Assembly (NCBI GenBank): GCA_029261035.1
Contig: JAJDCD010000005.1
Location: forward strand, 91,516-155,515
DNA length: 64,000 bases
Source of the DNA: Candidatus Omnitrophota bacterium
Lineage (GTDB): Bacteria; Omnitrophota; Omnitrophia; Omnitrophales; JACROU01
Reading direction: 5' to 3'
The notes below the pieces were generated by a model. It worked only from the letters and a program-made list of their open reading frames with translations. It was not told where the DNA came from and did no database searches. The translations under genes and the position numbers were made by a program. This document shows, in pieces, positions 3,710 to 39,317 of the stretch (position 1 is the stretch's first letter; every line of letters begins with the position of its first letter).

Positions 3710-4969
3710 ATGAAAGAACGGATTGCTTTGAAGAGAGGGTACAGAACTCCTTTTGTTAAAAAAGATGCAGAATTTGCTCGGTTAAATACGGTAGATTTAT
3801 CTTGTCTTTTAGTGAATGACATTTTGAAAAAAATAGATTTTAATGCGTCGCTCATTCAGCATGTCGTGTGGGGGATGGTTGTTCCTGATGCTAATATCTA
3901 CTCCGTTGCACGTGAAGTGGTTTTAGGTTCAGAGCTGGATAATCGAGTTGAAGCTTATTCGGTTTCTAGGGCTTGCGCAACTTCTCTACAGGCAACAACA
4001 AATGCGGTTAGTTTCTATCATTCTTTTCCAGAAGAAAAATCAATATCTTTAGTTGGTGGTGTGGAATCATTCTCGTCTGTGAGGCCTGTATTAACAGACC
4101 AAGCATCTAACTATTTTAAATCGCTAGCCGTGCGGGCTGGGTTTGGGACTAAATTACTCAATGCCTTAAAGATTCCAATTACTCGACTCTTTCCTGTGCC
4201 GCCAGCAGCAAGAGAGTATTCAACTGGACTCACCATGGGAGAGCATTGTGAGTTGATGGTTAAAGAATTTAAAATTGAACGAAAGCGTCAAGATGCATTT
4301 GCATTGGCGAGCCATCAAAATGCGGTAAAAGCTAGAGAAGTGATTGAGCCTCAGATCGTTGATGTATTGGGAGTTAAAAAGGATACGTTGATTCGAGATA
4401 CAACTTCTATGGAAGCTTTGTCTGGTTTGAGACCAGCCTTTGATTCGAAAACAGGAAGCGTTACTGCGGGGAACGCTTCTCCTTATACGGATGGTGCTGC
4501 AGCTCTTTTTGTTATTTCACCTGCGTTGGAATCTGAAGTGAAGCCCGATGCTTTTATGAGTGATTTTGAGTATGTTGGATTTAATCCTGCGGATGGTCTT
4601 TTGATGGGACCTGGAAAAGCAATGTTACGTATATTACAAAGACAAAATTTGCGATGGAATGATTTGGATTATATCGAAGTTCATGAGGCATTTGCAGGAC
4701 AAGTTCTTTGTAATGTGGAAGCGGTAAATTCCTCTGATTATAGAACTAATCAATATGGTGTTTCATATGATGCGGGTAAATTAGATGAGTTGACAATTAA
4801 CCCTTATGGGTCTTCTATTTCTTATGGACATCCATTTGGTGCTACGGGAGCACGAATGGTTTCTCAGGCGATTGCGTATCTTGAGAAGAATAATAAGAGT
4901 AGGGCTTTGGTTTCGGCTTGTACGGCAGGGGGATTGGCGGGGGCGTGTTTAATTACGCGTGAAGGTTAG
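3710..4969 (+). CDS. Acetyl-CoA C-acyltransferase (thiolase family)
   Basis: Thiolase signatures: active-site Cys region 'VSRACATSLQA', 'GNASPYTDGAAALFV', and C-terminal 'NPYGSSISYGHPFGATGARMV'. Confidence 0.85.
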   Translation: MKERIALKRGYRTPFVKKDAEFARLNTVDLSCLLVNDILKKIDFNASLIQHVVWGMVVPDANIYSVAREVVLGSELDNRVEAYSVSRACATSLQATTNAVSFYHSFPEEKSISLVGGVESFSSVRPVLTDQASNYFKSLAVRAGFGTKLLNALKIPITRLFPVPPAAREYSTGLTMGEHCELMVKEFKIERKRQDAFALASHQNAVKAREVIEPQIVDVLGVKKDTLIRDTTSMEALSGLRPAFDSKTGSVTAGNASPYTDGAAALFVISPALESEVKPDAFMSDFEYVGFNPADGLLMGPGKAMLRILQRQNLRWNDLDYIEVHEAFAGQVLCNVEAVNSSDYRTNQYGVSYDAGKLDELTINPYGSSISYGHPFGATGARMVSQAIAYLEKNNKSRALVSACTAGGLAGACLITREG

Positions 4970-4989
4970 GTTGGTATAAGAGTTGTTTT

Positions 4990-5250
4990 GGAGAGCCTGG
5001 GTAGTTTTCCGGCGCTCAGACAGCACAAAAGTAAAATGCACTTTTGTGAACTCGCGGCGGAAAACTACCCAGGCTCTTTTCGAGCAAACACTTGTGGGCT
5101 GTTGGGGGTTGAAACAAGATGGGCGTCGAGCCCATATTGTTTCTTGGGTTTATTGTGTTTCGTTATTGTGTAAATAACGAAACGCGTTTTTGTTGTTAGG
5201 TGTTTATAAGAAATCAGGGATAAAGGCATTTGTTGCGTGGAATGGCTGGT
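4990..5250 (+). repeat. Copy A of a roughly 270-bp structured intergenic repeat (candidate sRNA or MITE-like element). The two spurious small ORFs 4983-5177 and 4988-5173 lie inside it.
   Basis: Aligns with 15902-16170: a shared 5' 'GGAGAGCCTGGG', a 22-bp stem with compensatory changes, and a conserved core of about 100 nt ending in the hairpin 'gtttcgttattgtgtaaataacgaaac' plus a T-rich run. Confidence 0.7.
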
Positions 5251-5300
5251 TTAGGATTTAAATTAAAGCTAAAAGCTATAGATTTTGAAGAGGAAAAGTT

Positions 5301-6193: not shown

Positions 6194-8068
6194 ATGGACG
6201 ACATCATTGATGAAAAGAAAATGGGTAAGGAAAAAGCTAAGTCTTTATCCGTAGCAGAACAAGCTCGAGAAACAGAATGGACTCTTCCAAGTTTTGTTCA
6301 ACAACTTTTTAATGGAAATGTTCATTGGGAACATTTACTTCCTTTTGCACAACAAGATGAAGCAGATAAGAAAATAGGGGATGAATTTCTTTTACGCCTC
6401 GAACCTTTTCTTAAGGAAAATTTAGATCCTGATTTGATTGACCAGACAGGTGATATTACAGAAGAACAATTAAAAGGACTGGCAGATTTGGGTTTGTTTG
6501 GAATTAAGATCCCGAAAAAATACGGCGGTCTTGGTATGAGTAAGTTTAACTATAATCGTATTGTGGGAATGGTAGCGAGTCATTGTGCTTCTACAGCTGT
6601 TTATTTATCAGCACATCAAAGCATTGGAGTTCCTCAACCTCTCCTTCTTTTCGGAACAGAAGAACAAAAACAAAAATACTTACCTCGTTTTGCAAAAGGA
6701 GAAATTTCTGCTTTTGCATTAACAGAGCCAAATGTGGGTTCGGATCCTGCTCAGATGAGCACGATTGCAACTCCTATTGATGGTGGTGAGTCTTATTTAA
6801 TTAACGGAGAAAAATTATGGTGCACGAATGGAACCCGTGCGGACGTTCTTATTGTAATGGCGCAAACACCTCCTAAAGTTGTGAACGGTAAAGAAAGAAA
6901 ACAAATCACAGCATTTATAGTTGAGAAAACGATGCCTGGTTTTGAAATTTTACATCGATGTAGTTTTATGGGTTTGCATGGTATTCAGAATGGTTTATTG
7001 AAATTTACAGACGTTAAAGTACCTAAAGAAAATATTATCTGGGGTCTTGGGAAGGGGCTTAAGCTTGCGTTGACGACTTTGAATACAGGACGTTTAACGA
7101 TACCTGCAGCAGCGACTGCTGTCGGGAGAGTTTGTTTGAAAGTTTCTAAAGATTGGTCCAATGAACGTTGTCAGTGGGGATCTAAAATAGGGGAGCATGA
7201 AGCTGTAGCTTCAAAGCTTTCTTTTATGGCTTCAAACTTATTTACAATGGATAGTGTGAATCAATTTACTTCTATAGCGGCAGATAAAGGAAATATGGAT
7301 ATTCGATTGGAAGCCGCAATTGCAAAGCTTTACTGTACGGAAGCGAGTTGGACGATTGCTGATGAGACCGTTCAAATTCGTGGTGGTAGAGGTTACGAAA
7401 GTTCTCCTTCTTTAAAAGCTCGCGGCGAACTTGGGATTCCTGCAGAACGTATTTTGAGAGACGCGCGTATTAATACGATTATTGAAGGAACCAGTGAGAT
7501 TATGCGTTTGTTTATTTCTCGTGAGGCGATGGATGATCATGTTAGAAGAATAACGATGATTTTAAGTCCGAAACGAAGTTTAGTACAACGATTCATTTCT
7601 GTAATTAAGAGCACCTTTCATTATGCTTTATGGTATCCGAAACAATGGATTTACATAACTCGACTTGGGCATAGTTCCTTGGATCCAACACTCAAGAAAC
7701 ATCTTAAATATGTGGATAAAACGAGTCATAAATTAGCCAGAAACCTTTTTCATGTAATGGCGATCTATCAGCAAGGATTAGAAAAGAAGCAGCAGGTTTT
7801 ATTTCGTCTTGTGGATATTGGAATGTATTTATTTACCATGGCTACAACCTGTGCCAATGCACAGCGTTTGATGGAAGAGGACCCTGAAGGGGAAGGTTTA
7901 AAAGCTAAAAACCTAGCCGATCTTTATTGTCGAGAAGCTAAAAAGAAAATTAAAGCGCGTTTTACTTACCTTTTTGACAAAGATGATAAGTTTTCATATA
8001 AAATAGCCCAAGAAGTTTTGGATGGAAACTATGATTGGATGGAAAACGATATTATTCTTCCTTATTAA
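6194..8068 (+). CDS. Acyl-CoA dehydrogenase family protein with a long C-terminal extension
   Basis: ACAD motifs 'GGLGMS', 'EPNVGSDPAQMST' and 'QIRGGRGYE'. 624 aa. Confidence 0.85.
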   Translation: MDDIIDEKKMGKEKAKSLSVAEQARETEWTLPSFVQQLFNGNVHWEHLLPFAQQDEADKKIGDEFLLRLEPFLKENLDPDLIDQTGDITEEQLKGLADLGLFGIKIPKKYGGLGMSKFNYNRIVGMVASHCASTAVYLSAHQSIGVPQPLLLFGTEEQKQKYLPRFAKGEISAFALTEPNVGSDPAQMSTIATPIDGGESYLINGEKLWCTNGTRADVLIVMAQTPPKVVNGKERKQITAFIVEKTMPGFEILHRCSFMGLHGIQNGLLKFTDVKVPKENIIWGLGKGLKLALTTLNTGRLTIPAAATAVGRVCLKVSKDWSNERCQWGSKIGEHEAVASKLSFMASNLFTMDSVNQFTSIAADKGNMDIRLEAAIAKLYCTEASWTIADETVQIRGGRGYESSPSLKARGELGIPAERILRDARINTIIEGTSEIMRLFISREAMDDHVRRITMILSPKRSLVQRFISVIKSTFHYALWYPKQWIYITRLGHSSLDPTLKKHLKYVDKTSHKLARNLFHVMAIYQQGLEKKQQVLFRLVDIGMYLFTMATTCANAQRLMEEDPEGEGLKAKNLADLYCREAKKKIKARFTYLFDKDDKFSYKIAQEVLDGNYDWMENDIILPY

Positions 8069-8121
8069 TTTAAATCCTAAATAGAGCTTGGTTCGTAGTA
8101 AATATAAATTATCCAAGTTCT

Positions 8122-8163
8122 TGTCATCCTGAGAGGAATTAAAATTTCCTAACTCAGGATGTG
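8122..8163 (+). terminator. Terminator-like hairpin downstream of the acyl-CoA dehydrogenase gene
   Basis: Inverted repeat 'catcctgag' ... 'ctcaggatg' with nested 'aggaa' ... 'ttcct'. The following T-run is weak. Confidence 0.3.
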
Positions 8164-8242
8164 TATTTAAAACTTCTAGATTCTTCTATATACTCAGAAT
8201 AACATTTGAATACTAAAACCATTTGCTAATGAAAGAAACCGA

Positions 8243-10288: not shown

Positions 10289-12304
10289 ATGAATGTACTT
10301 CAGGAGTTTTTAGAATTAGTTCCGGTAGAGAATTTTGAAGCTCAATATTCTAAGGATATTACGGAGTCTTCCTTCTTTGAATATCCTCTCAAGCCTATTG
10401 TAGAGGCTGAGAAAAGGTTGATAGATTCGTCTCAGACTTCTATAGGTTATTTTTCTATGGAATATGGCCTAGCACCGAGTATCTATCACACTCTGAATAG
10501 ACAAGAACCTCTATCTTCCAGTAATAAATTCACACAGCATGGTGTCTTTTCAAATTTAAGGTCTATGGATACGTATTTTACGATTCGTATCGATAAGCGT
10601 CTGGATCTTCCTATTTATAGCGGAGGTTTGGGTGTCTTGGCTGGAGATACCTTGAAGAGTACTGCGGACCTTAACATACCAATGGCAGCAGTAGGTATTT
10701 TGTGGAATAAAGGCTATTTTAAGCAAAACTTTTGGTTCAGGGATGGGCAACGGCCTCAAGAGATGCAATGGGACCCACAGACGTACCCAGGGCTAATTCC
10801 ATTGAAAAACCGAATTGTAATAAAGTTTAAAAATGAAACCATCTTGTTGCGTCCCTGGAAGTATTATATCTATAGCTTTGATCGTAGTTTTGTAGTTCCT
10901 CTCATTCTTTTAGATTCAAACCTGCCAGACAATTCTGATTTTGGAAAAAAATTAACGGATCAGTTGTATCGGAGTGATGATGAAACTTGGAGACTGTTTC
11001 AGCGATTAATTCTAGGAAAAGGAGGGATTGGAATCTTTGAGGAAATGCAGTATCAACTGGATCTGTTTCATCTGAACGAAGGACATGCAGCTTTTTCATT
11101 TATAGAAAGTTCTAAAGGGCATTCAGTTGAAAAAATAAAAGAGATATTTTCTAAATTTGCTTACACCTGCCATACTCCTGTTGCGGCAGGTCATGACCGT
11201 TTTCATGAGAGTGTTCTTGCGCCAGTTTTAGACGAGGAGGATTATAAACTCCTTTTCTCTTATGGGAAAGATCCAGAGTATGAAGGGGTTGCCAACCTAA
11301 CGACTTTTTCTTTGAATGCTGCGGAGAAGGTGAATGCGGTTTCTCATAAGCATGAAGAAGTCATGCATATGCAGTTTCCTAACTACTCTAAAAAAATAAC
11401 TTCAATTACAAATGGGATCCACACCTACACTTGGTTGAGTGAGGCTTTTTCACGCTTGTTTGATCAATATGAAGACCGGATAGGTCCTTGGAAACAAGAC
11501 CCTACCTGTTTGAAGAATGTGCTCAATTTAAAATCAGATCCTGCATTTAGAAAAGCTTTGTGGGATGCTCATCAAGAAAATAAAAAACATTTAACTTCTT
11601 TATTGGAAGTTTGGAAAGTAGATCCTAATATTTTAACTATTTCCTGGGCTAGACGCATCGCTGCTTATAAAAGACCTAGTTTGATTTTACAAGATGTTGA
11701 TCGTTTGATGGAGATTGGAGCTAAATACGGGGGCATTCAAATTATCTTAGCAGGGAAGGCCCACCCTATGGATAATTTGGCCGAAACACATATCGATGAA
11801 ATGCTTACGGCCATTGACTCTTTGGATAATAATAGAAAAAATGTTCGTGTTGTTATGTTTGAGAACTATGATACTTATTTCGGAAAGCTATTGTCTTCGA
11901 GTGTCGACGTTTGGTTGAATAATCCGTTGCCTCCATTTGAAGCTTCAGGTACGAGTGGAATGAAAGCAATTTTAAATGGGGTTGTTCAGATGACTACGGT
12001 GGATGGTTGGGTCTGTGAAGTGACTCAAAATCCTATCGGTTGGTTTTTTGGTTACGAACATAAAGGAGGCGATATCGGAAGCGAATCCGAATTGCGTTTA
12101 AATGAAGATTCAGTAAAGTTGTATGAAACAATAGAAAAAGCAGCAGATCTTTATTGCAAAACAAATGTTAAGGGCGAGCTTCAGATAGAATCCACTTGGA
12201 TTGATATGATGATCGAGTGCATCGCTGTTTCTGCTCACTTTAATACACATCGAATGGTTAAAGAGTACCAAGAGAAAATTTGGAAAGAAATGTTGAGCAA
12301 ATAA
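10289..12304 (+). CDS. glgP: Alpha-glucan phosphorylase family protein (GT35, glycogen/maltodextrin phosphorylase-like)
   Basis: Contains 'GGLGVLAGDTLKS', 'TNGIHTYTW' and the PLP-Lys region 'EASGTSGMKA'. Confidence 0.85.
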   Translation: MNVLQEFLELVPVENFEAQYSKDITESSFFEYPLKPIVEAEKRLIDSSQTSIGYFSMEYGLAPSIYHTLNRQEPLSSSNKFTQHGVFSNLRSMDTYFTIRIDKRLDLPIYSGGLGVLAGDTLKSTADLNIPMAAVGILWNKGYFKQNFWFRDGQRPQEMQWDPQTYPGLIPLKNRIVIKFKNETILLRPWKYYIYSFDRSFVVPLILLDSNLPDNSDFGKKLTDQLYRSDDETWRLFQRLILGKGGIGIFEEMQYQLDLFHLNEGHAAFSFIESSKGHSVEKIKEIFSKFAYTCHTPVAAGHDRFHESVLAPVLDEEDYKLLFSYGKDPEYEGVANLTTFSLNAAEKVNAVSHKHEEVMHMQFPNYSKKITSITNGIHTYTWLSEAFSRLFDQYEDRIGPWKQDPTCLKNVLNLKSDPAFRKALWDAHQENKKHLTSLLEVWKVDPNILTISWARRIAAYKRPSLILQDVDRLMEIGAKYGGIQIILAGKAHPMDNLAETHIDEMLTAIDSLDNNRKNVRVVMFENYDTYFGKLLSSSVDVWLNNPLPPFEASGTSGMKAILNGVVQMTTVDGWVCEVTQNPIGWFFGYEHKGGDIGSESELRLNEDSVKLYETIEKAADLYCKTNVKGELQIESTWIDMMIECIAVSAHFNTHRMVKEYQEKIWKEMLSK

Positions 12305-12311
12305 TTATTTG

Positions 12312-13115
12312 TTAGACGTGGTTAAAAAAGTTTAAAGCGTTTTGAGTAACCCCTTCAGGGTAACCATCGTAATTGCTGTTATGTGTTCCTTCTTCAATTT
12401 CAAAAATTTCTTTTTTTTGTACTGTCAGTTCAAATAGCTTTTTACCCATCCATATGGGGCAAGTTGCATCTTTGCTTCCGTGAATAAAGAAGATTGGATT
12501 TTTGGATTGAGATACAAGGGAAGTGTTCTGAAACCTAAAAGCCTGGTAAATAAATTCAGGCACAGAAAAGTAATGAATTTTGACCAAATCTTTTAATTCT
12601 GTAAAAGAACCTTCAAGAATGACTCCTTTTACGGATTCCTTTGATGATAGTTCTAATGCAGGGTAAGAACCAATGGATTCCCCATAAATCAATATTTGAT
12701 TTCGATTAAGCCCTGTTTCTTCTAAATAGTTTAGTCCTGCTTTGGCATCTTCAACGAGATCTTTCCCTTCTTTGATTTTGCCTTGGCTTTTTCCGAACCC
12801 TCGGTAATCTACTAGAAGTAGAGATACACCGGCATCAACCCAACCTTTTGCCTTGTCTAAGCGATCTGAGATATTACCCGCATTTCCATGAAGGTAAAGG
12901 AGGGTGTATTTAGAATTGGGTGCCTGAATGTGCCAAGAGGAAAGGAGCGTACTATCAGAGCTCTTAAGGGTCACATCCTTAAATGTTAAACCATACTCCG
13001 TAGGAGTGGTTGGTAAATTTGAAGAAGGGTAAAAGAGAAGTTGTGTGATCATAAAGTATGCCGTAACTAGAAAAGTGAAATAACGTGTTAATGGATTAGC
13101 TAAAATAAAAAACAT
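12312..13115 (-). CDS. Alpha/beta-hydrolase fold protein
   Basis: 'LLYLHGNAGN' and the nucleophile elbow 'GESIGS'. Convergent with glgP. Confidence 0.7.
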   Translation of the reverse strand: MFFILANPLTRYFTFLVTAYFMITQLLFYPSSNLPTTPTEYGLTFKDVTLKSSDSTLLSSWHIQAPNSKYTLLYLHGNAGNISDRLDKAKGWVDAGVSLLLVDYRGFGKSQGKIKEGKDLVEDAKAGLNYLEETGLNRNQILIYGESIGSYPALELSSKESVKGVILEGSFTELKDLVKIHYFSVPEFIYQAFRFQNTSLVSQSKNPIFFIHGSKDATCPIWMGKKLFELTVQKKEIFEIEEGTHNSNYDGYPEGVTQNALNFFNHV

Positions 13116-13277
13116 ATTTCATTTTATAATTAATTTGAATAAGAGTAAAATAGAATAAACTAGCGCAGAGCGTTTAGCGGGGAGCGTATAGAGTCCCTTG
13201 GCCAAGAAACATTTTTGCAAAAGAATCCTATTCGCTAAACGCTCTATGCTGTCCTCTAATAAGCAAAGGATGTCTAT

Positions 13278-14312
13278 ATGCCTAATTCTCCAAAATATCA
13301 GTACTGGATTGATGATTTTAATCGTTTGGTAATACAAAAAAAGTCTAAATCAGGGCGTTTGTTGGGGAAGTCAGAAGTGCTGAACGGACGTTTTGAGCTT
13401 ACTCAAGAAAAGTATCTTCGTTTTAAACTTAAGACCCCTAGTGCCATTCTTCAAGATGTTCTTGTCCGATCCAATCAAACAACCCTCAATTTAAAAGGAA
13501 ATTGGTCGCTCACATCAAGTCATAAGCTCAAATATAAGTTGCACCGATCTTTAGGAGAGCTTTTGTTCTCAACAGAATTAATTCAATATAACAAAAATAA
13601 ATTTGTTTTTTCTGTGACTACGAAGGATAACCCAAAAACATTTTCCACCCGGTTATTTCAATTTGATGGGTTTTGGCAAGTAGACAAGAATAATAGAATT
13701 GTTTTTACTACGATACATAGAAAATCAAAGAGAGACCGATTTCTTTTTCAAGGGTTATGGGAATTAAATCGAAATCATCAAATTATTTATCGTTACTCTT
13801 TGGAACAGCTTAAAGCAAGAAAGAAGAAAGAGCAAACGCTTATTCTTAAAGGGAGTTGGCGATTTGTAAAAAAAGGTTTTCTGGATTATTCATTGAAAGG
13901 AGATGCTCAATCTCGATTTCGATTTCGAGCCCAGTTTACATCTCATAGCCATATTCGTAAGGATCGTTCTAAACTTGTATTTAAAGTAGGAGTGTTAGTT
14001 TTAGGAAGAAAAAAGAGAGCTTTGAAAACGATTGAGCTTTTTGGCCGAGTTGTATTTTACCAAAAGCTGACTTTAGGTTTTGAGATTGAATATGAAAGAG
14101 GTGTTTGGGAAGAGAGTAAATTTCACGTACTCTATAAGCCAAAGAAGGGAAGCGAAGTGAAGCTCGAGTTATTAAATGGGAGAGGGAAAAGTTTGGGGAT
14201 TCAGATGGTTTTTTCACAACAACTATTGCAAGAGCGCGGAGATTTTTTTGTACAAGCAAAGAAACAGGGGAAAGAACAATCTGTTTTTACAGGAGTTCGA
14301 ATTCCTTGGTGA
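13278..14312 (+). CDS. Hypothetical basic protein
   Basis: Long ORF with a good RBS ('aaagga' then ATG). Lys/Arg-rich with internal 'KGNWSLTSS' and 'KGSWRFVKKG' repeats. No known domain. Confidence 0.45.
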   Translation: MPNSPKYQYWIDDFNRLVIQKKSKSGRLLGKSEVLNGRFELTQEKYLRFKLKTPSAILQDVLVRSNQTTLNLKGNWSLTSSHKLKYKLHRSLGELLFSTELIQYNKNKFVFSVTTKDNPKTFSTRLFQFDGFWQVDKNNRIVFTTIHRKSKRDRFLFQGLWELNRNHQIIYRYSLEQLKARKKKEQTLILKGSWRFVKKGFLDYSLKGDAQSRFRFRAQFTSHSHIRKDRSKLVFKVGVLVLGRKKRALKTIELFGRVVFYQKLTLGFEIEYERGVWEESKFHVLYKPKKGSEVKLELLNGRGKSLGIQMVFSQQLLQERGDFFVQAKKQGKEQSVFTGVRIPW

Positions 14313-14396
14313 AGACAGAAGTCAGAGGTCGGAAGTTAGAAAAAATGAAAGCTTTTCTGTCATCTGACTTCAGTAGAAAACAACAAAGGAGAATTT

Positions 14397-14738
14397 ATGG
14401 ATTGGAATCAAAAAAAGTGTAAGCCTTGTGAAGGAGGGGTTGAGCCTATTTCGATTGAGGACGCTAAGAACCATGTGTCTGATTTGGACCAGTGGACACT
14501 TTCGGGAAATGGAAGTTCGATATCAAAGCAATTTTTAATGAAAAATTTTATATCTGCGATCGAATTGATAAATAGAATTGCCGCTGTCAGTGAGTTAGAA
14601 AACCATCATCCAGATATCCACTTAACTGGGTATAGAAACTTACAAATTGATTTATCCACGCATGCCATCAGTGGATTGAGTGAAAATGACTTTATTTTGG
14701 CCTCAAAAATTGACCATATGCCTAAGGAGCTTAAATAG
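14397..14738 (+). CDS. phhB: Pterin-4-alpha-carbinolamine dehydratase
   Basis: Matches the PCD family core 'ENHHPDIHLTGYRNLQIDLSTHAISGLS'. Confidence 0.8.
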   Translation: MDWNQKKCKPCEGGVEPISIEDAKNHVSDLDQWTLSGNGSSISKQFLMKNFISAIELINRIAAVSELENHHPDIHLTGYRNLQIDLSTHAISGLSENDFILASKIDHMPKELK

Positions 14739-14899
14739 ATACTTGTAAGTGTCTATGATAGAATAAGTTAAGATTAAATTAATCTATCTCTAGTGTTTGG
14801 AGATGTTAATTGTATATTAGAGTTGTAATTAGGGTATTCACGTGGTAATGTTGATGCTTAACTTCGCTTCTTAAGAGGCGATTTGAGAGGAGATTTATT

Positions 14900-15805
14900 T
14901 TGTCTACAGCAGTTTCAGAACCGAAGAAAACAGTTAAAAATGACAGGGTTACGAGTATATCAGACTTGTTTCCAGCTAAGACGGAAAAGGAAATAAAACA
15001 ACAGAAAATGGGCGCATGGGTTCGCGCTATTTGGATGATTTCAGCACATTTAGGTTGTATTGCTGGCTTCTTTTTCTTTTCGTGGAAAGCGGTTTTTGTA
15101 GGAGTTTTTATCTATTGGATTACAGGTGGTTTGGGTATTTGCTTAGGATTTCATCGTTTATTAACACATCGTAGTTTCCAGTGTCCTAAGTGGTTTGAGT
15201 ATTTCTTGACCGTGTGCGGCATTTTAGCTCTTCAGGGAAGTCAGGTTTATTGGGTCGCATCTCATAGAGCACATCATCTTTATTCAGATCAAGAGGGAGA
15301 TCCTCATAGTCCGCGTAAGGGTTTTTGGTGGTCTCATTGCATGTGGCTTTTTGATACTAAATGGCTTTCAACCGATGATTTATCTGCACGATTTGCCGGA
15401 GATTTATTAAAAGATCCAGGCCAACGTTTTATTGAGAAATTCCAATTGGTTCCTATTGTTTTATTAGGCATGGGATTGATTGCTCTTGGCTGGGAATACT
15501 TTGTTTGGGGTTTTGTAATTCGAATGGTTGTTTGTTATCACGGAACTTGGTTTGTGAACTCAGCTTCTCATATATGGGGTTATCAAAACTATGATTCTGG
15601 AGATGACTCAAAGAACTTGTGGTGGGTTGCGTTACTTAGTTTTGGTGAAGGGTGGCATAACAATCATCATGCTTTTCAATCTTCTGCGCGTCATGGGTTA
15701 AGATGGTGGGAAGTAGATACGACATTTATCACGATTAAGTTTTTGAGCTTGTTGGGGCTTGCTAAGAATGTGCAGGTTCCTAAGGAAGTTGGAGCTACTT
15801 CGTAA
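14900..15805 (+). CDS. Acyl-CoA (delta-9) fatty-acid desaturase, membrane-bound
   Basis: Three histidine boxes: 'HRLLTHRS', 'HRAHHLYSD' and 'WHNNHHAF'. Apparent TTG start preceded by the RBS 'gagagg'. Confidence 0.85.
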   Translation: MSTAVSEPKKTVKNDRVTSISDLFPAKTEKEIKQQKMGAWVRAIWMISAHLGCIAGFFFFSWKAVFVGVFIYWITGGLGICLGFHRLLTHRSFQCPKWFEYFLTVCGILALQGSQVYWVASHRAHHLYSDQEGDPHSPRKGFWWSHCMWLFDTKWLSTDDLSARFAGDLLKDPGQRFIEKFQLVPIVLLGMGLIALGWEYFVWGFVIRMVVCYHGTWFVNSASHIWGYQNYDSGDDSKNLWWVALLSFGEGWHNNHHAFQSSARHGLRWWEVDTTFITIKFLSLLGLAKNVQVPKEVGATS

Positions 15806-15901
15806 TTCTTTTGTTTTAGTCTGCCTATCTTCCTGGTGGGTGGACTAAGGCTTTTTTCTATTTTTTCTATTAAAATTTTGTTTGGGTTTTGAAGTTGGGT
15901 T

Positions 15902-16170
15902 GGAGAGCCTGGGAAATTTCTCGGCGCTCAGACATGCTCGGACTTTGTCCTGCGCAACTCGCGGCGAGAAATTTCCCAGGCTCTCATCAGTGATAAGTCT
16001 TTGGTTGGGTTGAGGGGGTTGAAACAAGATGGGCATCGAGCCCCTATTGTTTCTAGGGTTTAATGTGTTTCGTTATTGGGTAAATAACGAAACGCTTATT
16101 TGTTGTTAGTGATTTTAAGAGGTGATTGGGATAAAGGCGTATGGGCAATGATGGGTTGGTTTAGGATTTA
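15902..16170 (+). repeat. Copy B of the roughly 270-bp structured intergenic repeat
   Basis: About 80% identity to 4990-5250 across the conserved core. The 5' stem is maintained by compensatory substitutions. It ends in the hairpin 'gtttcgttattgggtaaataacgaaac' followed by a T-rich run. Confidence 0.7.
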
Positions 16171-16237
16171 GGATCCGCTATAAGGCTGCGGATTCGCGTC
16201 GGGCGTCGAGGTTAAAAGCTAATAACTAATAGCCAGC

Positions 16238-20717: not shown

Positions 20718-20814
20718 CACTGTATTCGTCTTCAGATTGTTTTATTTCGTATTTTTGCTATAATACCGGCCCTATTTAAAGTTTAGTTTAATGATGAGAA
20801 AGGAAGTTATTTTT

Positions 20815-21306
20815 ATGGCAGACGAAGAAAAGAAAGAAGAAGAAAAATTAGAAGAAGCTCCAAAGGCTGAAGAAGCAAAAGAAGAAACAGTTCCGGCAGA
20901 GGAAGCTCCAAAAGCAGAGACTCCAAAAGTTGAGGAAGCTCCTAAGGCGGAAGAAGTAAAAGAAGCAGCGGCTCCAGCAGCAGCTCCTAAAGCGGAAGAA
21001 GCAAAAGAAGAAGCAGCTCCAGCAGCAGAAGCTCCAAAAGCGGAAGAAGTAAAAGAAGCAGCAGCTCCGGTAGCAGAGACTCCAAAAGCGGAAGAAGCAA
21101 AAGAAGCAGCAGCTCCAGCAGCAGAGGCTCCTAAAGCGGAAGAAGCTCCAGCAGAAGATGGTGAGCCAAAAAGAATTAAGTTAAACAACTTGTCATTAGA
21201 GGAAATTGAAAAGAAACTTAAAGAGTGTGAAGAGAAAATGGGTGGTTTGCATTCTCGATTTGCTCGGGAACTTTTAAAGCGTAAGGCGCAATTAACCCAA
21301 AGCTAA
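20815..21306 (+). CDS. Acidic Ala/Glu/Lys/Pro-rich repeat protein with a unique C-terminal tail
   Basis: RBS 'aggaag' 9 nt upstream of ATG 20815. About 16-17-aa 'APKAEE(A/V)KEAAAPAAE' repeats, then the non-repetitive 'KRIKLNNLSLEEIEKKLKECEEKMGGLHSRFARELLKRKAQLTQS'. A full antisense ORF (20772-21188) is judged to be a low-complexity artefact. Confidence 0.55.
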   Translation: MADEEKKEEEKLEEAPKAEEAKEETVPAEEAPKAETPKVEEAPKAEEVKEAAAPAAAPKAEEAKEEAAPAAEAPKAEEVKEAAAPVAETPKAEEAKEAAAPAAEAPKAEEAPAEDGEPKRIKLNNLSLEEIEKKLKECEEKMGGLHSRFARELLKRKAQLTQS

Positions 21307-24094: not shown

Positions 24095-24162
24095 TAAAAA
24101 GTGCGGTCCAGAGCCTGGGTAGAATTAGATCTTTTGATTTTGCCTGGGCTTCATTTTAAAAC

Positions 24163-24200: not shown

Positions 24201-24368
24201 AAAAGGCTTTTGGTTCTTAGCTTTTAGTAGAGTTTAATTCAAAAATTTTTTTCAACCAAAAGCTAAGAGCTAGTAGCCAAAGACTATAGATATAGGAAGT
24301 CTTGCTATTTTACTCAAAATTTGAAAGAATACTCTTTTAACATTAACTCTTAACAAGTTTTAGGTGCT

Positions 24369-29879: not shown

Positions 29880-32800
29880 ATGACGTTAAAGTCTTTTCAA
29901 AAATCTCAGATTTTTGTTCGTTCTATAAGTATGCTAGTTCTGTCTGTCTTTTTGTTAGACTCTACGGTACAGGCCAGTCAGCTTAGTGTTCTTTCTCAGC
30001 AAGCTCCTTTAATTGTTGCTCCCAAGTATTTAAAATTACCTAATATTATTCCATCAGCAGAAGTAGCTCAGGTGGACGATTACTTCCTAAATGATTTATC
30101 TCACAAACCTATTCTTTATTTAATTCAAGATGCTCATGAGAGCTTAGACGCTCAGAAAAATATATATCAACTTTTAAAAATGTTAGTTCAAGAACGCGGA
30201 GTAAAAAAGGTTTATTTTGAGGGGGGAGCTACAGAATTAGATAAATCTTTTTATCAGTTTTCCAATAAGCCAAAGTTAAATCAAGATGTCTGGGAAGCCT
30301 TATTTGAATCAGGAGAGATGAATGGTGTTGAGTTTTACTCTACACAAGCGCCTGAGTATGTTCGTTTTTTAGGTGTTGAAGATGAATCATTGTATTTTGA
30401 AAATGTTTATGCCTTGAAAAAGGTATTTGATCTTCAAGATTTAACAAAAGAAAGATTAAATGAGGTAGAGCGGAAAATAGAGAATCTTAAGGGGGTTCAT
30501 TTAACCGGAGACTTGAAAAAAGTTTGGGATCTTCAGCAAAGCTTCGATAAAAAGCATATTGATTTATTTCAGTATGCAAACGAAGTGAGTCGTTGGACTG
30601 AGAAAGAGTTGCGTCTGGATATGTCTCAGGTTAGAAATCAGGATGCATGGCCTCAGTTGGTTCGTTTACAGCAAATCCGTATTTTAGAACAAGGAATACA
30701 ACAATCTCAAAAGGCCTTGCGCGTAGAGCTTCAATTGATTCAAGAAAGAAATAGAGGGGAAGTATTCCAACCATTTTCATTTTTATGGAACCCACAACAG
30801 CATGCTTTAGCTCAAGGGCATTTGAGATGGTATTTTGAAAAGTGTCTAGATCTCTTGAAAAAAAATAATCAATCTTTTAGTAAAGATTATCCACACCTAG
30901 AAAGCTGGATTGGTTTTCATATACTTAAAGATGAAATAAAAGCTTCAGATTTATTTAACGAGATTCAAGTATTGACGAATAAAGTTATTGAAAATATAGA
31001 AGTTTCCAATAACAGCAAATCTTTTTTGAGTTGGCTTCAGAAATGGAATTTATTTCAGAAATTAATCTTGGTTAAACTAAATAAAGAAGAGTGGCTTCAG
31101 ATTTTAAATCAAGAAGAAGCGTATGACCCTGTTAAACTATTAAATAATCCAGAATACTTCCAAGAACCTATTGAGAGTCTGGATATACTTCATCAACTTT
31201 ATCAAGAATCCCTTCAGAATTACCATTGTGTTACCCAAAGAGATCAGACTCTTTTTAATAAGATGATTCAAGACATTACTGCAAGTCCATCAGATTCCGT
31301 TTTGGTCATGGGAGGTTTTCATTCAGACGCCGTAAAAGCCTTGTTGAAACAAGAAAGGCAAAGCTTTGTTGTTTTTAATCCTGGAATTAAAGACTTGTCT
31401 CATACATTAGATTACAAATCCTTAATGACAAGAAACTCTATAAGTTCAATGAAGGAAGTTTCCCGAGATCAGGTAGCGGTTCCTTATGAAGCGGCATTTG
31501 GTGCAGATTCAAAAAATATCATTCCTTACCAAGAAGCTGTTCGTCAGCAAGCTCAGATTGCCTTGGCCGCAAGTTTAGGAAAAGTGAAGCATGGTGATGA
31601 GCCCTGGTTATCCGCTTTTGTTGCCATTGAATCCTTGATTGATGAGAATGATGTGATTTTTAGACTTGTATTTGAAGACGAATTTACAACGGAATTCCTC
31701 AAAGAAACATTAAGAAATATTTCAGACTCTTCACAAAGAAGGCTTCAAATTGATTCTGCTCATTTACTCAAAACATTTCTTATAACTACTTATGAAGAAA
31801 ACCATGATATCCTTGCCCCCAATTTCAGAGAATGGCTAGAGGAATTCAAAGGTTTGGCGAATGAACTTTATTCTAGAATTATGGAAATTTCAGATGCAGA
31901 GAATATTGCGGGCTTCTTAGAGAAAGGGCTCTTAAGTCAATATGACTCTAAGGGCACAACGACTGATATTGCAAAATTTAATGGGATTATGGATTTGGCA
32001 GGTATTGTTCAGGGAATGAATTCTCCTGTTAGAGATATTTATTCAGCAAGTCGTATAACAAATTTACTTTCTCCAGAAGTTCTTTTCTCTCATTCTGTAG
32101 TTCAAGGTCTGGATTTTGTTCAAGATGGAGAAGAGGTTGTAATCTATCATGAAGAAATTGATGATGAAGACGGAAATATTTTATTTTTTATTTTTATTAT
32201 TGATCAAACAATAGAACAAGGGGATGTTAAATCTACCCAAAGACGTGATTTCTTAATGAGCACCGTAACGGGTGATGTAATTCCTCTTGCTGTGGGGCAC
32301 GAGGATATTTTCTGGACAGAAGAAGATCAGTTACTACATGTCTTATATCCTCCGAATTTGGAAATTACTTATGACGTATTTTTGAAGCTGGATGATGGTG
32401 GGTTCGAGCCATTAAAGGCGCCTTATACAGCAAATAGTTTGGGGGCTTCAGCAGAGGATGGATCTGATCTTTCAAAGCAAGAGCGACTTAAACTACGACG
32501 TAATACTTTAAAATCTGTTTTAGACGATTTGATTGAGGATAAGACCTTTGTTACTTCATGGGGATTAGTTGGTGTTTTAGTGGAAAGAATTCTGGAGAAA
32601 GAACCTCGTTTAGCACAATTTGTGAATCGAAAACTTATTACAAATGACTTAAAGAAACCTGGAATTAAAGATAAATATACTAATTTAAGGAAGTTAATTA
32701 ACAAAAGAAAGGAGTCTTTGTCTGTTGCTGATATATCCTTAAAGACCAATACCATTACAGATGTGCGAAGAGCCTTGATGAAGCAGATTCTTTCCGAAAT

Positions 32801-35800
32801 TGAAGCATCAAATGCTGGGTTAGCAGTAGGAGATCAAGTTAAGTTAACCTCTCATCAACTCTTAGAAATGATGATTCAGAGAAAGCCTGAGTTAAAAGAA
32901 AAAATACGTTTAGATGCAACTCAAAATGATATTGCAAGAGGGATTATAAAAAGCTCAGCGCTATTGACGTATAAGAAACAACCTAAAATTAAAGAAGGTT
33001 TTGATTACACAGCTGTAGCCACAATGAAACAGATATTAGATGAATGGGGAGAGTTGCCAGCTAAAGGAGAAGAGTTATTAGAGCGATTATGGATGATTCA
33101 ACCAAAAGGACTTAGCAATAAGATTGAAATTCCTGCCTTCTATGAATTGGTAGAAAACATACCGTATATCTATTTTCATCCTAATTATACTGCTAGGAGA
33201 TATCGCACGGATAGCAGGAGTATAAATGACTTAAGAAGGACGATACGTAGATTGCTTAATTCGAATAAGGTTTTAACTCCTTTTCAAGTTTGGGAGCAAT
33301 TGAAGAAGAAATCTAAATTTAGAGACTTGTTTTATGTTGATTTCAATCGTGCTTTTCAGGAAGAAGCTTTTCCAGGTCAATTTGAAGAAATGACTCGAGA
33401 GCAAGCTGTTAATGAAATGGTGAGGTGGATACTAAATAGAGGTGTTTTTCAATATAGAATGACGGACCTTCATCAATCGCTTGAAACTGTTTTTGGTATG
33501 AAAATTACTCTTAAAGAGGTTCGGAAAGCTGTTCAAACAAATCAAGAGCTTTACTACCATAAAAGATTTGATGCTGGTAGAGAAAGAAGAGAGCTAATTA
33601 AAACAATTCTAGTGGATTCTGAAGATATCTGGTCTATTTCTTATAGTGCGCTTTTTACATTGTTGACAACGGATTTATTTGATGAGGAAGGTCTTCTTAG
33701 CAGGCTTTCTTTTAAAAAGCTAACAAAAAAACAATTGAATTTAGATTTAGAGATATTGGGAATAGACGATACGAACTCAAGATTGACTTATGTGGATTCT
33801 GGAACTGTAAAACCTTTTGATTATGCAGAGACTAGGGTCTTTGTAGAGGATGTGCTCACTATATTAAACGGAAACAGAAACTTAGAGTTGCAGCAAATTT
33901 TCAAAAAACTTCGAAGAGAGTTTCCTCGCAATGAAATTTATCAAAGGTTGACACTCCAAACATTTAGAAGAGAGTTCACCAACTCTCCTCAACTAGTGCT
34001 GCATCGTAGATATTTACTGCCAAGAGTCAAATATAAGCAAGATCGAACTTTACGTAGAGAGCTTTTAAGGGTGCTTGATGAGTATCCTCGATTGTCTCGA
34101 TATGGTCTTTGGTCTCGTTTACGTCAAAGAAAAGGTTTTGAAAATATTCCTTACTATAGAATTAGACCTTTTTTTGAGTCTGGGAGTGTAGATGATTTAG
34201 AAATTGTAGAGCATAAGAGATTTGGTAATGAGAATGAACGAGGATATATCCGAACTTTTGTGATTTGGATTTTGGATAATGTACCAGTGAAACGAAAGGT
34301 TGTTGTAGGAGATATTCAACAAGCTTTACTTTATGGTTTTGATATTAATGTAACTAGAGAGTTAATTCGGGGTTCAATTTTTCATTCAAGAGACGGATTG
34401 CATTCAGATAATAGGATGGATATAGATCAAGAAAGAAAAGAAATTTTAATTGATTATTTTTCAGATTATAACCTGCAGACAATTTCATTAAGCCAATTAC
34501 AATCTGATCTAAGAGGATTGGCTCAATACCTTGATTTTAGCGATGAAGTTATTTTAGCGGATCTTGAAGCTGTTGGGCTTCTGGACAGAGTTACGCTTGA
34601 AACGGCAACTTTGACGACTGATGGGTCAGAGGTCACTGTGACAGATCCTTTAGATAGTTCTGGTAATACAGTAAGAACTTTAGGGGCTGCTCCAGAAATT
34701 GAGTTAGGAGAGGGGGGTAGCGAAACTCGATTTAGAGTTCGGGATTTAGTTTTAGAAGGAAAAAGAGAACGGCCAGATACAGCCAGTCATTTTGGGTATG
34801 CTCGCATGAATGACGAAGTGATTTCTGCTAGAAGAAGAGAGATGATGAGAATATTAAATGAAGCGCAAGAGCTTGAAGTCCCAATTGGACCTAGAGAATT
34901 GTGGGATTCATTAAGAAGTAGGCCTGGTTTTGAACTTTCTACACTGGCAACTGTATTTTATGATTTAAAACGTATTCCGGAATTGGGTAATCATCCTGGA
35001 AGGAGAAGGGTAGATCGTTTAACTCTCCAAGAGCATGATGATTCTGATGAGAGCTTAATGAGAAAATTAACAGATAGAGTTATGTCTGAAATCACAAGTT
35101 GGAATTTGTTTAGAAGCAATGAAGACAAGCTCTTTCTGACCCCTGAAGAATTATATGATGTTATTATTGAAGCTCATAACTCTTTGGCAGAACGTTTAGG
35201 TCTAGAGCAATTTGTTGCATTTATTTCGGAGGAAAATATTAACTACCAATATCTTGTCGAGAGAAAAAGTTTTTCTGAATTAGAAACTCGTTACCAGGTT
35301 CTAGCGGTTACTTTATTGGTAGACTATTTAAATGAAGAAGGGACCTCACCGGCTAGTATTGAAGAGCACTTTTTAAAGTTAAAGTCCATTGATCCAGATT
35401 TGTTTTCGAGCATTGAAAGCGCATCATTTTTCTCTATTTGGGCTCAGTTCCCACAGCTTAATTATCATCCTAAAATACAAGGGAATAATCGATCTCAATT
35501 GGGATTAGATGAAATAGAGCTTCGGCAATTACAATATAGAATTTCAGGTCGCCTTAATGCTGCTGAACGACCTTTGACATCTCTAGATTTGCAACAGGCG
35601 CTACGAATTGTTAATGGGATGGAAATTGAATTGTCAGAACTGCAAGAAGAACTGCGTTCTCCTGAAAATAGAACGAACTTCTTTGAGCATCCAAATTTTG
35701 ATTCTGGTTATGAACAAAGATTAATGCTTGCTGAAGTGTGGGCAGGTGCTGATGGAATTATGTCTGAGCTTGAATTGTATGAGGAATTCTTTCAACGTTT

Positions 35801-38800
35801 TGGAATGTTACTTACTTTTCCAGAGTTTGAGAACCTTCTTGAAGTAAATAGTGATTTGTTTATTGATTACAGACAAATTGCTAGCTCTGGTAAGGCAAGG
35901 GTGCTACGCATTATGACAAAGGTTTTGGACTATTCAGAACGTTCTCTAACTTATAGAGATCTTCAAGCAATTCTTAAAGAAAAATTCAGTATTTATTTGG
36001 TACCAGCGTATCTTTATAACATCATTACAGAGAAAAATTCATTATCTTATTCTATTGTGAACCATCCAAAATATACTTTCCTTTCAGTGGGTCAACAAGA
36101 AGAAACTCACAAAGACGAAGTCTTTCAAGGGTTTTTAGGTCGCAGGGTGTATGAAGCCCTTTTCGTTACCAATACACGAATTACTACAATTGCTGATATC
36201 AGGGAATTGATTAAGCGAGGATATGTCGTTGGAGAAAGGTCGGATGAAGAAGTAGATCAAGCAATTAAGAATTATATTAATCAATCTATTTTGTTTAGGA
36301 ATGGACAAGGCCAATTTATAGGCCATTCGAACTTACTCGTTGATCTTGATTTTGTTGAACCAACTCGCCCTGGATATGATCAAACCATAACAGAGGCCGA
36401 AGTGGATCTGAGATTTGTGAATGAAGAGGTTGTTGAAGTAGTTACACAGGGACCTTCTGAAGTTAGAAAGATAAAACAAGCAGAAAAAACTAAGCTTGTT
36501 GTAGCTGGTATTTTGGCCATACTGAATGAGGTAGCGGAAGAACAAAAGTATAAGCATGCTGTAGAAAAAAGATTACTTAATGCTAATGATATTGCCGCTC
36601 TTTTAAAAGAACGTTCCCCTGAGCTTTTGCCATCTACGCGAACCCGAAATAATGAAATTTTTCATTATATTTATTCAAATGAGTCTCTTTATCATCATCC
36701 AATGTATGTTAGGCCTTTGAGATCTGGAGAAATTCTAACTGCGGCAGTATCTATTTTAGAGAAAAGTGAAAAAAAATTAGGCTCTTTTGATTTGTGGTTG
36801 GAATTAAGAGATTCTCCAGCTCTTCAAAATATTTCTTTTCGGGACTTTAAAAGAGCTATGAAAAACAGGGATGATCAATTTGATTTGTTTGAAAATTTCA
36901 AACCTTTAAGTGAGTCAGATGAATTAGAAAATGCTTTGCTTTTTATGGATGAATTGACTGCAAATAAAGATTTTTTAGAAATAAAAGGAATGTTAAGAAA
37001 CTTCTTTGATATTGACGCTACACCGGAGTCGATAGTTCGACTGTTAGGGCAAGGTATTGAAATAGATATTGATAACGCATTGAAACAAAGATATTTTGAG
37101 GACTTTATTTCTTTTCAAGTAGGTGGCGGGTATGGGTTAACTTTTGTCGGGGTTTTGAAAGCTTTGGAAGAAAGTTATGGTTGGGAATTGAGAGAAGAAG
37201 AATTGATCAACGTTATTCAAACAAGTTCTAATTTAAGTGTATATAAATATTTCTCGCCACGACTGATTGTTGCTATAGAAGCTAAAAGAATACTAGATAG
37301 GTCGGATAGAAAGATTACTATTGAAGAAATTCATCAACGGATGAAAGAGCGACTTCCTGATGTCAAAAGTATTCATAATGATAATGCTTTAAGCCTTTTA
37401 GACTTTATGATGGAAAGAGACCTTGTTGGTTTATATCACCACCCAAAATTTAAGTCGAAGGATTCTGTAACTATAGAGAAACTGTGGGAAGAATTTAACC
37501 AATTAAATATTTCAGAAATTACAGGAAGTGATTCTGTAAGCATATCCAAGACAAATAAGGATAGAGTTTTGATTGTTACATCTTATAGTCCAAAGCAAGT
37601 AAGACAACGTACTATTTTAGAGGAGTTAGATATTAAATACAACCAGCCTATTCCTGAAAATGCTTGGACTGGATTAAGAAGAGATATGACGGCGGCAGAA
37701 GTATTGAGTGCTATAAAAGAAAAATTTGGAGTTGTTGTTTCCCCCGCAGAATTTAGAAGAATAGCTCTTAGAAAATCTGGTAGTACATCTGACCTGTTAG
37801 CGCATACGCGTTATATGGGTTACATCAACGAAAGAAGGTTAAGGATTAAACAGGTTTTAGACAGGAAAAAAGTAACTCGATTTAGGCTTATGCCTAGTGA
37901 TATTGCGAGAGAAATTTTAGATGAGTTTCAGATATCTGCAACTACAACAGATATTATGAAGGATTTGATTGTTATTGATGGTGGATCTTATATTCATCAT
38001 CCAAATTTTCTACATCAGAGAGAAGTAGTTCAAGCCAAGAAAGATGCTGTAAGAGAGTTGTTGATAGAAATAGCCAATGGAAGAGATGCTGTAGATGTTA
38101 AATTTAGTACTCTTATACCAAAGCTGAAAAATCTATATGGTTTTGAGGTGGCTCTTCGAAGTTTGGAAAAGATTTTTAGAGATAGTAAAAATTACTATGA
38201 TTTTAGAATTAGTCGTCAACAAGGAGATATGACGGCTCATATTCAAAAGTTTAAAACTGATGAGCCTCAAGCGCAACCAACGAAGCCGACTGTTGAAAGA
38301 GCGGAAGCATCTAGTTTGGGTGCAGCAATTAACCGAGATGATGTAATTCGTTTTGAAGAAAGTTACGATGTGACTTTGGAAAGTGTTTTAGATATTATTT
38401 CGGCAACACGGGAAGTATTGGGGCCTGATTTAAGAGACTACTTTCCTTATATTTACAAACAAATGTTAGCAGCACTTGAAAAAGAATCTGAGGTGCAAGT
38501 GCCTGCTTTGGTTGTTGCAGGGGAGGTAAGTCCTGAAGCGGTGCTGGTGCAAGTTAAATCAAATACAACGTTTGTTATTTACTATCAAGACGAAAGTTAT
38601 CCAGAGCAAATTGCTGTTGTAGCAGAAGAATTGATTCAATCAGGATTGATTGCCAGAGAAGATATAGATTCTCATATTCATTTGGTTTCTTTAAGTGATT
38701 TAGGTATTACAGAGCTTGAATTTTATGAACAATTATTTGATGGAGAAAAACTAACAGGTAAGAACCTTGCGCGCATTGCAAATGACGCGGGTATTTACAA

Positions 38801-39316: not shown

Positions 39317-39317
39317 C

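Follow-up and report, generated by a model that had tools for sequence, protein, structure and literature searches.

The Locus and the Two Copies of the Element

The stretch of DNA analysed here, 64 kb in length and called the window throughout, comes from a metagenome-assembled genome (MAG) of Candidatus Omnitrophota. Among its genes are those of a thiolase, an inositol-monophosphatase-family protein, an acyl-CoA dehydrogenase, DsbD, a phosphorylase, a fatty-acid desaturase, an AI-2E transporter and P-II, and no transposase or recombinase gene was found among the annotated genes of the 64 kb. Two intergenic spacers in these housekeeping surroundings, 10.9 kb apart, contain a hairpin-rich element of roughly 270 bases. 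Copy A is situated between the stop codon of the thiolase gene (4969) and the start of the inositol-monophosphatase-family gene (5301; Pfam annotation), and copy B between the stop codon of the desaturase gene (15805) and that of the convergent gene of the AI-2E-family transporter (16238). An earlier note on this DNA had described two intergenic copies of a repeat, each beginning 20–100 nt past the stop codon of a + strand gene. Both statements were borne out: pairwise alignment and nhmmer (E ~1e-100) recovered the two copies, and the measured distances are 20 nt from the thiolase stop to copy A and 96 nt from the desaturase stop to copy B. The desaturase gene has a terminator-like hairpin of its own at 15813-15851, ahead of copy B.

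The aligned copies, both on the + strand, run from AGTTGnnnTGGAGAGCCTGGG (4981/15893) to GGTTTAGGATTTA (5260/16170). In the 5'→3' direction they consist of the conserved start AGTTGnnnTGGAGAG, a long hairpin (H1), a linker, a 96-nt core comprising two further hairpins (H2 and H3) and a T-rich tail, and two short conserved blocks. Two covariance models, R1 for the core and R2 for H1, were built and run with filters off. The features considered in this work are as follows.

4981-5260, + strand: copy A, whole conserved span (pairwise alignment; nhmmer E = 9e-101)
4991-5078, + strand: H1 of copy A, long hairpin (inverted-repeat search, folding, RNAalifold)
5079-5103, + strand: variable linker of copy A (alignment, 36% identity to copy B)
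5104-5199, + strand: core of copy A (~92-93% identical to copy B; R1 score 129.7 bits)
5119-5199, + strand: 26-codon open reading frame (ORF) in the core of copy A, MGVEPILFLGFIVFRYCVNNETRFCC (ORF scan; status doubtful)
5154-5196, + strand: H3 and T-rich tail of copy A, intrinsic-terminator-like (consensus scan)
5217-5227, + strand: block GGGATAAAGGC of copy A, downstream of H3 (100% conserved)
5248-5260, + strand: block GGTTTAGGATTTA of copy A, right edge of similarity (100% conserved)
15893-16170, + strand: copy B, whole conserved span (pairwise alignment; nhmmer E ~1e-100)
15903-15985, + strand: H1 of copy B, same architecture (inverted-repeat search, folding, RNAalifold)
15986-16013, + strand: variable linker of copy B (alignment, 36% identity to copy A)
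16014-16109, + strand: core of copy B (~92-93% identical to copy A; R1 score 128.8 bits)
16029-16109, + strand: 26-codon ORF in the core of copy B, MGIEPLLFLGFNVFRYWVNNETLICC (ORF scan)
16065-16105, + strand: H3 and T-rich tail of copy B, intrinsic-terminator-like (consensus scan)
16128-16138, + strand: block GGGATAAAGGC of copy B, downstream of H3 (100% conserved)
16158-16170, + strand: block GGTTTAGGATTTA of copy B, right edge of similarity (100% conserved)
24110-24122, + strand: 13-nt match, claimed as a truncated third copy and rejected

No more copies were found in the 64-kb window by nhmmer --max, R1 or R2. A truncated third copy had been proposed at 24111; what is present there is a bare 13-mer at chance level (24110-24122; blastn E = 0.53 within the window), which begins 15 nt past the stop codon of the P-II gene, has neither the partner arm nor the core and was missed by nhmmer --max and by both covariance models. 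R2 matched only two other places, 39317-39370 and 45443-45496, both of them palindromic terminators without relation to the element. Other instances of GGTTTAGGATTTA, GGGATAAAGGC and AAAGCTAAnAnCTAnTAG in the searches were near chance level, and a 17-mer match at 8065-8081 is located in A+T-rich DNA and overlaps a stop codon. Thus delimited, the element is an orphan repeat family known from two copies so far.

The Long Hairpin and Its Compensatory Changes

The arms of H1 (4992-5015/5054-5077 in copy A and 15903-15927/15961-15985 in copy B) are 96% complementary. In copy A a run of 21 pairs is followed by a G.G mismatch, three more pairs, a bulge of 3 nt and two last pairs below a variable apex. 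The mismatch is kept in both copies (5012/5057 in A, corresponding to 15924/15964 in B), and so is the bulge, UCA; the arm sequences quoted earlier for this stem were idealised and did not show these irregularities. A K-turn was considered for the UCA bulge and ruled out, because the pairs that flank the bulge are Watson-Crick and not tandem G.A. The apex of copy A forms its own 9-bp hairpin, CACAAAAGT/ACTTTTGTG, which the earlier note had recognised and the inverted-repeat search found again. The apical sequences are only 23% identical between the copies, yet a small hairpin is predicted in each of them.

Comparison of the two copies revealed four pairs of H1 altered on both sides (5002/5067, 5004/5065, 5008/5061 and 5009/5060) and a single one-sided change, from G-C to G-U, at 4991/5078. 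Seven compensated positions had been claimed, so that the idea of a stem kept by compensatory change holds as regards the presence of double changes, but their number is smaller and the comparison involves two sequences. A chance origin of compensation at all four of the four stem differences is unlikely. In a covariation shuffle control, 33 of 500 shuffles matched the observed value, a control that has almost no power with two sequences only. Folding of the whole element is far more stable than that of shuffled sequences (z = −8.7 and −4.9), and H1, H2 and H3 were recovered independently by RNAalifold.

The Core and the Mosaic Conservation

The core of copy A starts with GGGGGTT, which is followed by H2 (5111-5143), a junction, H3 (5154-5186) and the T-rich tail with a final TAG. 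The stem of H2 is GAAACAA..GGGC/GCCC..TTGTTTC. Of seven core substitutions between the copies, six fall at unpaired positions and the seventh makes one mismatch in H2. A core of about 100 nt at about 92% identity had been reported, in good agreement with the 96 nt and ~92–93% found here, and the presence of GGGATAAAGGC and GGTTTAGGATTTA after the terminator hairpin was likewise corroborated in both copies.

Identity along the element is distributed very unevenly. It reaches 100% in both downstream blocks and in the upper part of the 3' arm of H1, is ~92–93% in the core, and comes to 23% in the apex, 36% in the linker (25–28 nt long and unalignable between the copies) and 41% and 47% in the two spacers. 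The element is therefore a mosaic of the 96-nt core and four or five short 100% blocks, separated by unalignable stretches. Such block-wise identity indicates constraint on specific blocks and no recent burst. Since uniform decay is expected of a neutral recent duplicate, copies A and B appear, from their alignment, to be old and diverged, with particular blocks under constraint.

Terminator-Like Hairpin, Strand Asymmetry and Promoter Scan

H3 is a perfect 11-bp hairpin, GTTTCGTTATT/AATAACGAAAC, adjacent to a T-rich run; G.U pairs lengthen it to 13–14 pairs. Its designation in the earlier note as a terminator finds support in the consensus scan, which scored H3 with its tail as terminator-like on the + strand, and on this strand only, in both copies. 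Consensus scans of the − strand of either copy yielded neither an equivalent terminator nor anything resembling a promoter. Three G.U pairs, at the base of H1 in copy A and at the base of H3, correspond to A.C mismatches on the − strand. The stem of H3 is A+T-rich with 4 G-C pairs, and the tail of copy B, TTATTTGTTG, is a poor U-tract. The + strand is the G-rich strand of the window and carries nearly all of its genes.

Upstream of H1, identity falls to the background level within 5 nt, and AGTTG is the sole conserved stretch. A consensus scan of the upstream regions gave no sigma-70-like site common to both copies, with the reservation that the consensus may not be that of the host phylum. 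In the downstream blocks, inspected by eye, none of the sigma-70, extended −10, sigma-54, ECF or Bacteroidetes-type spacings fits.

Searches for Relatives and Comparison with a Syntenic Genome

Rfam 15 gave no match at gathering thresholds in the whole window, and permissive E-values brought up nothing but unspecific hairpin similarity to miRNA precursors, with scores far under the threshold. No contig in the genome, metagenome or viral collections contains an exact match to the 21-mer of the core. A degenerate pattern of H3 retrieved three chance hairpins from unrelated taxa, and the outer pattern of H1 retrieved one GC-rich chance match in metagenomes and one in viral contigs. The pattern of the two downstream blocks is absent from viral contigs, and distant-mode blastn against phage and plasmid collections gave no match.

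The closest relative found is represented by one ENA contig, which shares its gene order with the window over ~20 kb; the proteins are 75% (thiolase) and 67% (desaturase) identical. The thiolase next to copy A has one match of 100% identity, after which the best is 75% identical, and the named matches belong to MAGs of Candidatus Omnitrophota/Omnitrophica. The spacer between the thiolase and inositol-monophosphatase (IMPase) genes measures 331 bp in the window vs. 110 bp in the relative, and that between the desaturase and AI-2E genes 432 bp vs. 67 bp. Neither covariance model matched the core in the relative, and both syntenic sites are without the element. The shorter desaturase–AI-2E spacer contains just a plain bidirectional terminator. 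In the thiolase–IMPase spacer the sole feature is a hairpin with a 23-bp stem, unrelated to the element, from which the thiolase gene takes its final codons and its stop. In three other thiolase relatives, no element was found downstream of thiolase either.

The relative has an intergenic element of its own, unrelated to the present one: it is ~600 nt long, is bounded by terminal inverted repeats of ~80 nt and occurs three times, in spacers whose counterparts in the window are short. The presence of different intergenic repeats at different sites implies that each lineage was colonised by its own repeats. Filled vs. empty sites are the classical signature of insertion, and the comparison leans towards it; the relative is distant (67–75% identity), so that an empty site could also mean loss.

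A Proposed Dispersed Structured Repeat Acting as RNA

The earlier note regarded the element as a candidate small RNA (sRNA) or MITE. This frame is reasonable in that the stem is kept by double changes, while the covariation is weaker than was stated and there is no third copy. In our opinion, the best reading is a lineage-specific, modular repeat of the class of bcr1, SPRITE, BOX and ERIC, and not a classical MITE. We tentatively propose, at a probability of about 0.45, that it is a dispersed structured repeat derived by insertion, of the bcr1/SPRITE/BOX kind, and that it functions as RNA within the 3' region of the gene that precedes it. Insertion is favoured because the sites are empty in the relative, no promoter is shared by the copies and blocks are conserved past the terminator. 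Action at the RNA level on the + strand is supported by the terminator-like calls and the G.U pairs, both of which concern the + strand only.

The direct observations are the repeat, its three helices, the compensated stem changes, the block conservation, the strand asymmetry and the filled vs. empty sites, and to these we add, by inference, a route of copying, transcription, processing and termination. Each copy would have been inserted just 3' of an unrelated + strand gene, and read-through from that gene would transcribe the element on the + strand. H1 may then fold into a rod of ~25 bp or more and serve as a barrier to, or a substrate of, an RNase. H2 and H3 would also fold, and H3 with its U-rich tail would end the transcript. 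As a result, the 3' end and the stability of the upstream mRNA would be shaped by the element, and a structured RNA of 110–200 nt might perhaps be released.

There are known systems of this kind. According to the account of bcr1 given by Delihas (2011, PMC3184786), these repeats of Bacillus are mobile and transcribed, and their fold is kept by compensatory changes; in that account those of the B. cereus group (~155 bp) are dispersed and intergenic, and their genomic distribution is not conserved between relatives, much as in our case. Unlike the element studied here, with two copies and no clear duplication, bcr1 is described there as having many copies and 5-bp flanking direct repeats (PMC3184786). 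Compensatory change in bcr1, as reported in the same part of that source, means that covariation alone does not favour an sRNA gene (PMC3184786). The SPRITE, BOX and RUP repeats of Streptococcus pneumoniae are also characterised there as modular, hairpin-forming and intergenic; SPRITE, a terminator-like repeat close to gene 3' ends, mimics a Rho-independent terminator and is often found between convergent genes, and copy B is placed likewise (PMC3184786). The Omnitrophota element has no sequence similarity to bcr1 or to SPRITE, BOX and RUP, the latter three belonging to a different phylum, and shows none of the repeated boxB modules of BOX. SPRITE, BOX and RUP occur in the order of a hundred or more copies per genome.

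Several observations speak against the reading of a dispersed repeat acting as RNA. Copy number and orientation rest on two copies; the element has no terminal inverted repeats, and the window has no transposase or recombinase gene; the two blocks past H3 find no explanation if the RNA ends at H3; and the stem of H3 is A+T-rich, with a poor U-tract in copy B. Since a separate terminator-like hairpin precedes copy B, little read-through may reach it from the desaturase gene. This reading leaves unexplained the blocks past H3, an imperfect direct repeat in copy A and the fact that the core and an ORF share their limits.

A Possible Pair of Stand-Alone sRNA Genes

The same structures could belong to a pair of paralogous sRNA genes, each with its own promoter just before GGAGAG and its end at the H3 terminator. 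H1 would then be a rod that binds a protein or an RNase, and the core would be the functional part. Conserved blocks between saturated spacers, compensated stem changes with conserved irregularities, a terminator-like hairpin on the + strand only and a low copy number within 64 kb are all consistent with such genes. Copy B is situated behind a separate terminator and would therefore need its own promoter, and copy A has TATAAG 10–15 nt ahead of GGAGAG. Nevertheless, no promoter-like motif is common to both copies upstream, and two 100% conserved blocks lie past the supposed terminator. The element is, furthermore, missing at both syntenic sites of the relative and was found in none of the collections scanned, and there is no Rfam match above chance. 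On this balance we consider an sRNA gene pair unlikely.

Possible Mobility at the DNA Level

A search for inverted repeats with 6-nt seeds detected H1, H2, H3 and the apex hairpin only, and in neither copy are the ends of the element joined by terminal inverted repeats. Copy A is flanked by an imperfect 17-nt direct repeat (14/17, p ~0.016), which encloses H1 and the core and leaves the downstream conserved blocks outside; in the same register of copy B the agreement is 12/17 (p ~0.55). The alternative of a selfish MITE, raised in the earlier note, thus gains from the empty sites in the relative and loses from the lack of terminal inverted repeats and of a convincing target-site duplication; a classical MITE the element is not. 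MITEs (Correia/NEMIS, Nezha, Chunjie) and ERIC resemble it in size class, intergenic position, strong RNA folds and filled vs. empty sites, but here the inverted repeat, H1, fills just the 5' third.

Another possibility is a single-stranded DNA (ssDNA) element moved by a tyrosine HUH-type enzyme (IS200/IS605 TnpA or RAYT-like) encoded elsewhere. In that case H1, mismatched and bulged, would be what the enzyme recognises, and any RNA structure a by-product. Elements of this type are expected to have neither terminal inverted repeats nor a clear target duplication, as found here. Irregularities of the hairpin are conserved and its stem co-varies; the copies are co-oriented on one replichore, with monotonic GC skew, and sites are filled in one genome and empty in the other. 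In addition, a palindromic element ends the thiolase gene of the relative at the same site, so that palindromic DNA does insert there.

On the other hand, no such enzyme gene is present in the window, the orientation evidence is n = 2, and the 96-nt core and the terminator features on the + strand would play no part. H1, with 24 pairs and a 33–38-nt apex, is oversized in comparison with known hairpins, those of IS200/IS605 and REP being much smaller. REP/BIME sequences and the end hairpins of IS200/IS605 are similar to the element in being defined by hairpins, with conserved stem irregularities and without terminal inverted repeats or target duplications; they differ in their shorter hairpins, the 180 nt of core and blocks have no counterpart in them, and no Y1 gene is found in the window. 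A REP/RAYT assignment was rejected for the length of H1 (83–88 nt vs. palindromes of 20–40 nt), the presence of the GTAG of REP in copy A only and the lack of a RAYT gene in the window. All this makes an HUH-mobilised element decidedly unlikely. An integron attC site was also rejected: the base of the stem, GAGAGCCTGGG/CCCAGGCTCT, does not correspond to RYYYAAC/GTTRRRY core sites, the size does not fit, and the copies are 10.9 kb apart among housekeeping genes, unlike sites in a cassette array.

More far-reaching versions would be an Omnitrophota-restricted class of functional RNA, whose rod and two-hairpin core would bind a protein or act in trans, or a hairpin-guided ssDNA element with a cargo terminator. 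Together they strike us as less probable again; if true, either would represent a family to which neither Rfam nor the public collections scanned contain a relative.

The 26-Codon ORF and the Artefact Explanation

A 26-codon ORF that fills the conserved core had been overlooked in the earlier note. In both copies the limits of the core coincide with it, from a Shine–Dalgarno (SD)-like GGGGG at the start to TAG at the end; GGGGG is 10 nt upstream of the start codon, which is buried in the stem of H2. It is conceivable that the core encodes a 26-residue peptide, that H1 is a structured 5' leader and that H2 hides the start. In favour of a small-protein locus, the frame is open in both copies with identical start and stop, the core runs exactly from the SD-like sequence to the TAG, and the start codon is inside a stem; the downstream blocks might also be an antisense promoter, although they fit no sigma-70 spacing.

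The substitutions in the frame (1 synonymous and 6 non-synonymous, spread 3/2/2 over the codon positions) nevertheless show no coding signature. The hydrophobic run of the peptide, ~11 residues, is too short for membrane spanning, the 10-nt SD spacing exceeds that of the genes of the window, and, if H3 terminates, the stop codon is in or past the termination zone. No Pfam or NCBIfam match to the peptide was obtained, and four ATG-start translations across the element are absent from the protein collection. The LDR and QUAD (Sib/Ibs) loci of E. coli, type I toxin–antitoxin systems, are comparable in having few intergenic copies of 150–500 nt and a tiny ORF together with heavily structured RNA, but the peptide considered here is insufficiently hydrophobic, lacks the signature of a coding sequence and resembles no family of toxins, and the − strand scans pointed to no antisense gene. 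A peptide-coding function of the core is, accordingly, very improbable. A second ORF (TTG at 5190/16100, 23 codons) was discarded, since it would read GGGATAAAGGC, a conserved block, in one frame in copy A and in another in copy B.

The probability of a chance similarity or an assembly artefact is vanishingly small. The DNA was assembled from a metagenome, and a 4-kb Logan contig from SRR15505516, which belongs to this organism, breaks off 48 nt before copy B, but the nhmmer E-values of ~1e-100 and the folding z-scores of −8.7 and −4.9 stand against an artefact. The many differences between the copies are, moreover, structured, so that a collapsed or duplicated assembly is not their source.

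Significance

The element is a new family of a familiar kind and not a new kind of system. Omnitrophota are uncultivated and their non-coding elements are essentially undescribed, and the repeat provides a handle, modest in reach, on this part of their genomes. Two syntenic genomes were found to host entirely different structured intergenic repeats at the 3' ends of genes. Such elements can set mRNA ends, cause breaks of MAG contigs and supply stop codons, as the hairpin at the end of the thiolase gene does in the relative.

Sequences flanking copies A and B

Of the two diverged copies of the structured intergenic repeat, copy A carries an imperfect direct repeat, which flanks the module made up of the long 5' hairpin H1 and the conserved core and overlaps the thiolase stop codon:

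4965-4981 / 5195-5211, imperfect 17-nt direct repeat, GTTAGGTTGGTATAAGA / GTTAGGTGTTTATAAGA

The equivalent register of copy B matches at 12 of 17 positions. Target duplication, internal repetition and chance are all possible origins of this repeat.

Upstream of copy B, the desaturase gene has a terminator-like hairpin of its own, and copy B is therefore dispensable for terminating this gene. The organism has also been assembled independently, and a contig of that assembly covers this region.

15813-15851, terminator-like hairpin and T-run of the desaturase gene
about 11790-15854, region corresponding to Logan contig SRR15505516_806857

The Logan contig stops 48 nt short of copy B, within the T-run that follows the desaturase hairpin; low complexity, a break induced by the repeat or a presence/absence polymorphism may explain this end point.

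Giant ORFs and their palindromes

The top non-self matches of the H1 covariance model (24-26 bits) were two 53-nt perfect palindromes of the window, 94% identical to each other, which resemble bidirectional terminators and each lie shortly 3' of a giant ORF.

29880-39116, + strand, giant ORF 1, 3078 aa
39315-39367 and 45441-45493, palindromes, AAACAGGCCCGGGCCTCTTTTTT.../...AAAAAAG.AGGCCCGGGCCTGTTT
39632-45355, + strand, giant ORF 2, 1907 aa
45670-63333, + strand, giant ORF 3, 5887 aa

The three giant ORFs follow in succession and contain internal repeats, e.g., at 49908, 50184, 50457 and 58926. Genes of this kind have been reported as characteristic of Omnitrophota (bioRxiv 10.1101/2023.11.21.568195). 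A degenerate tandem repeat (20824-21189, period 15/33 nt) inside the ORF at 20791-21306 encodes a low-complexity protein segment rich in Glu, Ala, Pro and Lys.

Other repeats of the window and its relative

Further hairpin families were found in the window and in L001 (ENA k141_187506), a contig of the closest available relative:

L001 8150-8670, 13925-14532 and 17827-18545, ~600-nt element, both orientations
L001 11251-11349 and 18160-18250, window 8120-8165, palindromes with base GTCATCC...GGATGAC
window 24205-24278, L001 4287-4371, 6103-6193 and 12164-12311, low-complexity hairpins of AGCTTTTGGCT/AAAGCTAAAAGC units

The ~600-nt element represents a MITE-like family that has no relationship to the element of copies A and B; its terminal inverted repeats (~80 nt, TTGCCCCACCTC...) each form a hairpin, and stem differences among the three copies are compensated. 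The GTCATCC...GGATGAC palindromes keep their base, while the interior varies in sequence yet stays paired, and one in L001 extends into the 3' end of the thiolase gene, supplying its final codons and stop. The low-complexity hairpins lie immediately 3' of genes in both genomes, and short motifs related to their units occur at 5265-5285, 3' of copy A, and at 16215-16232, 3' of copy B.
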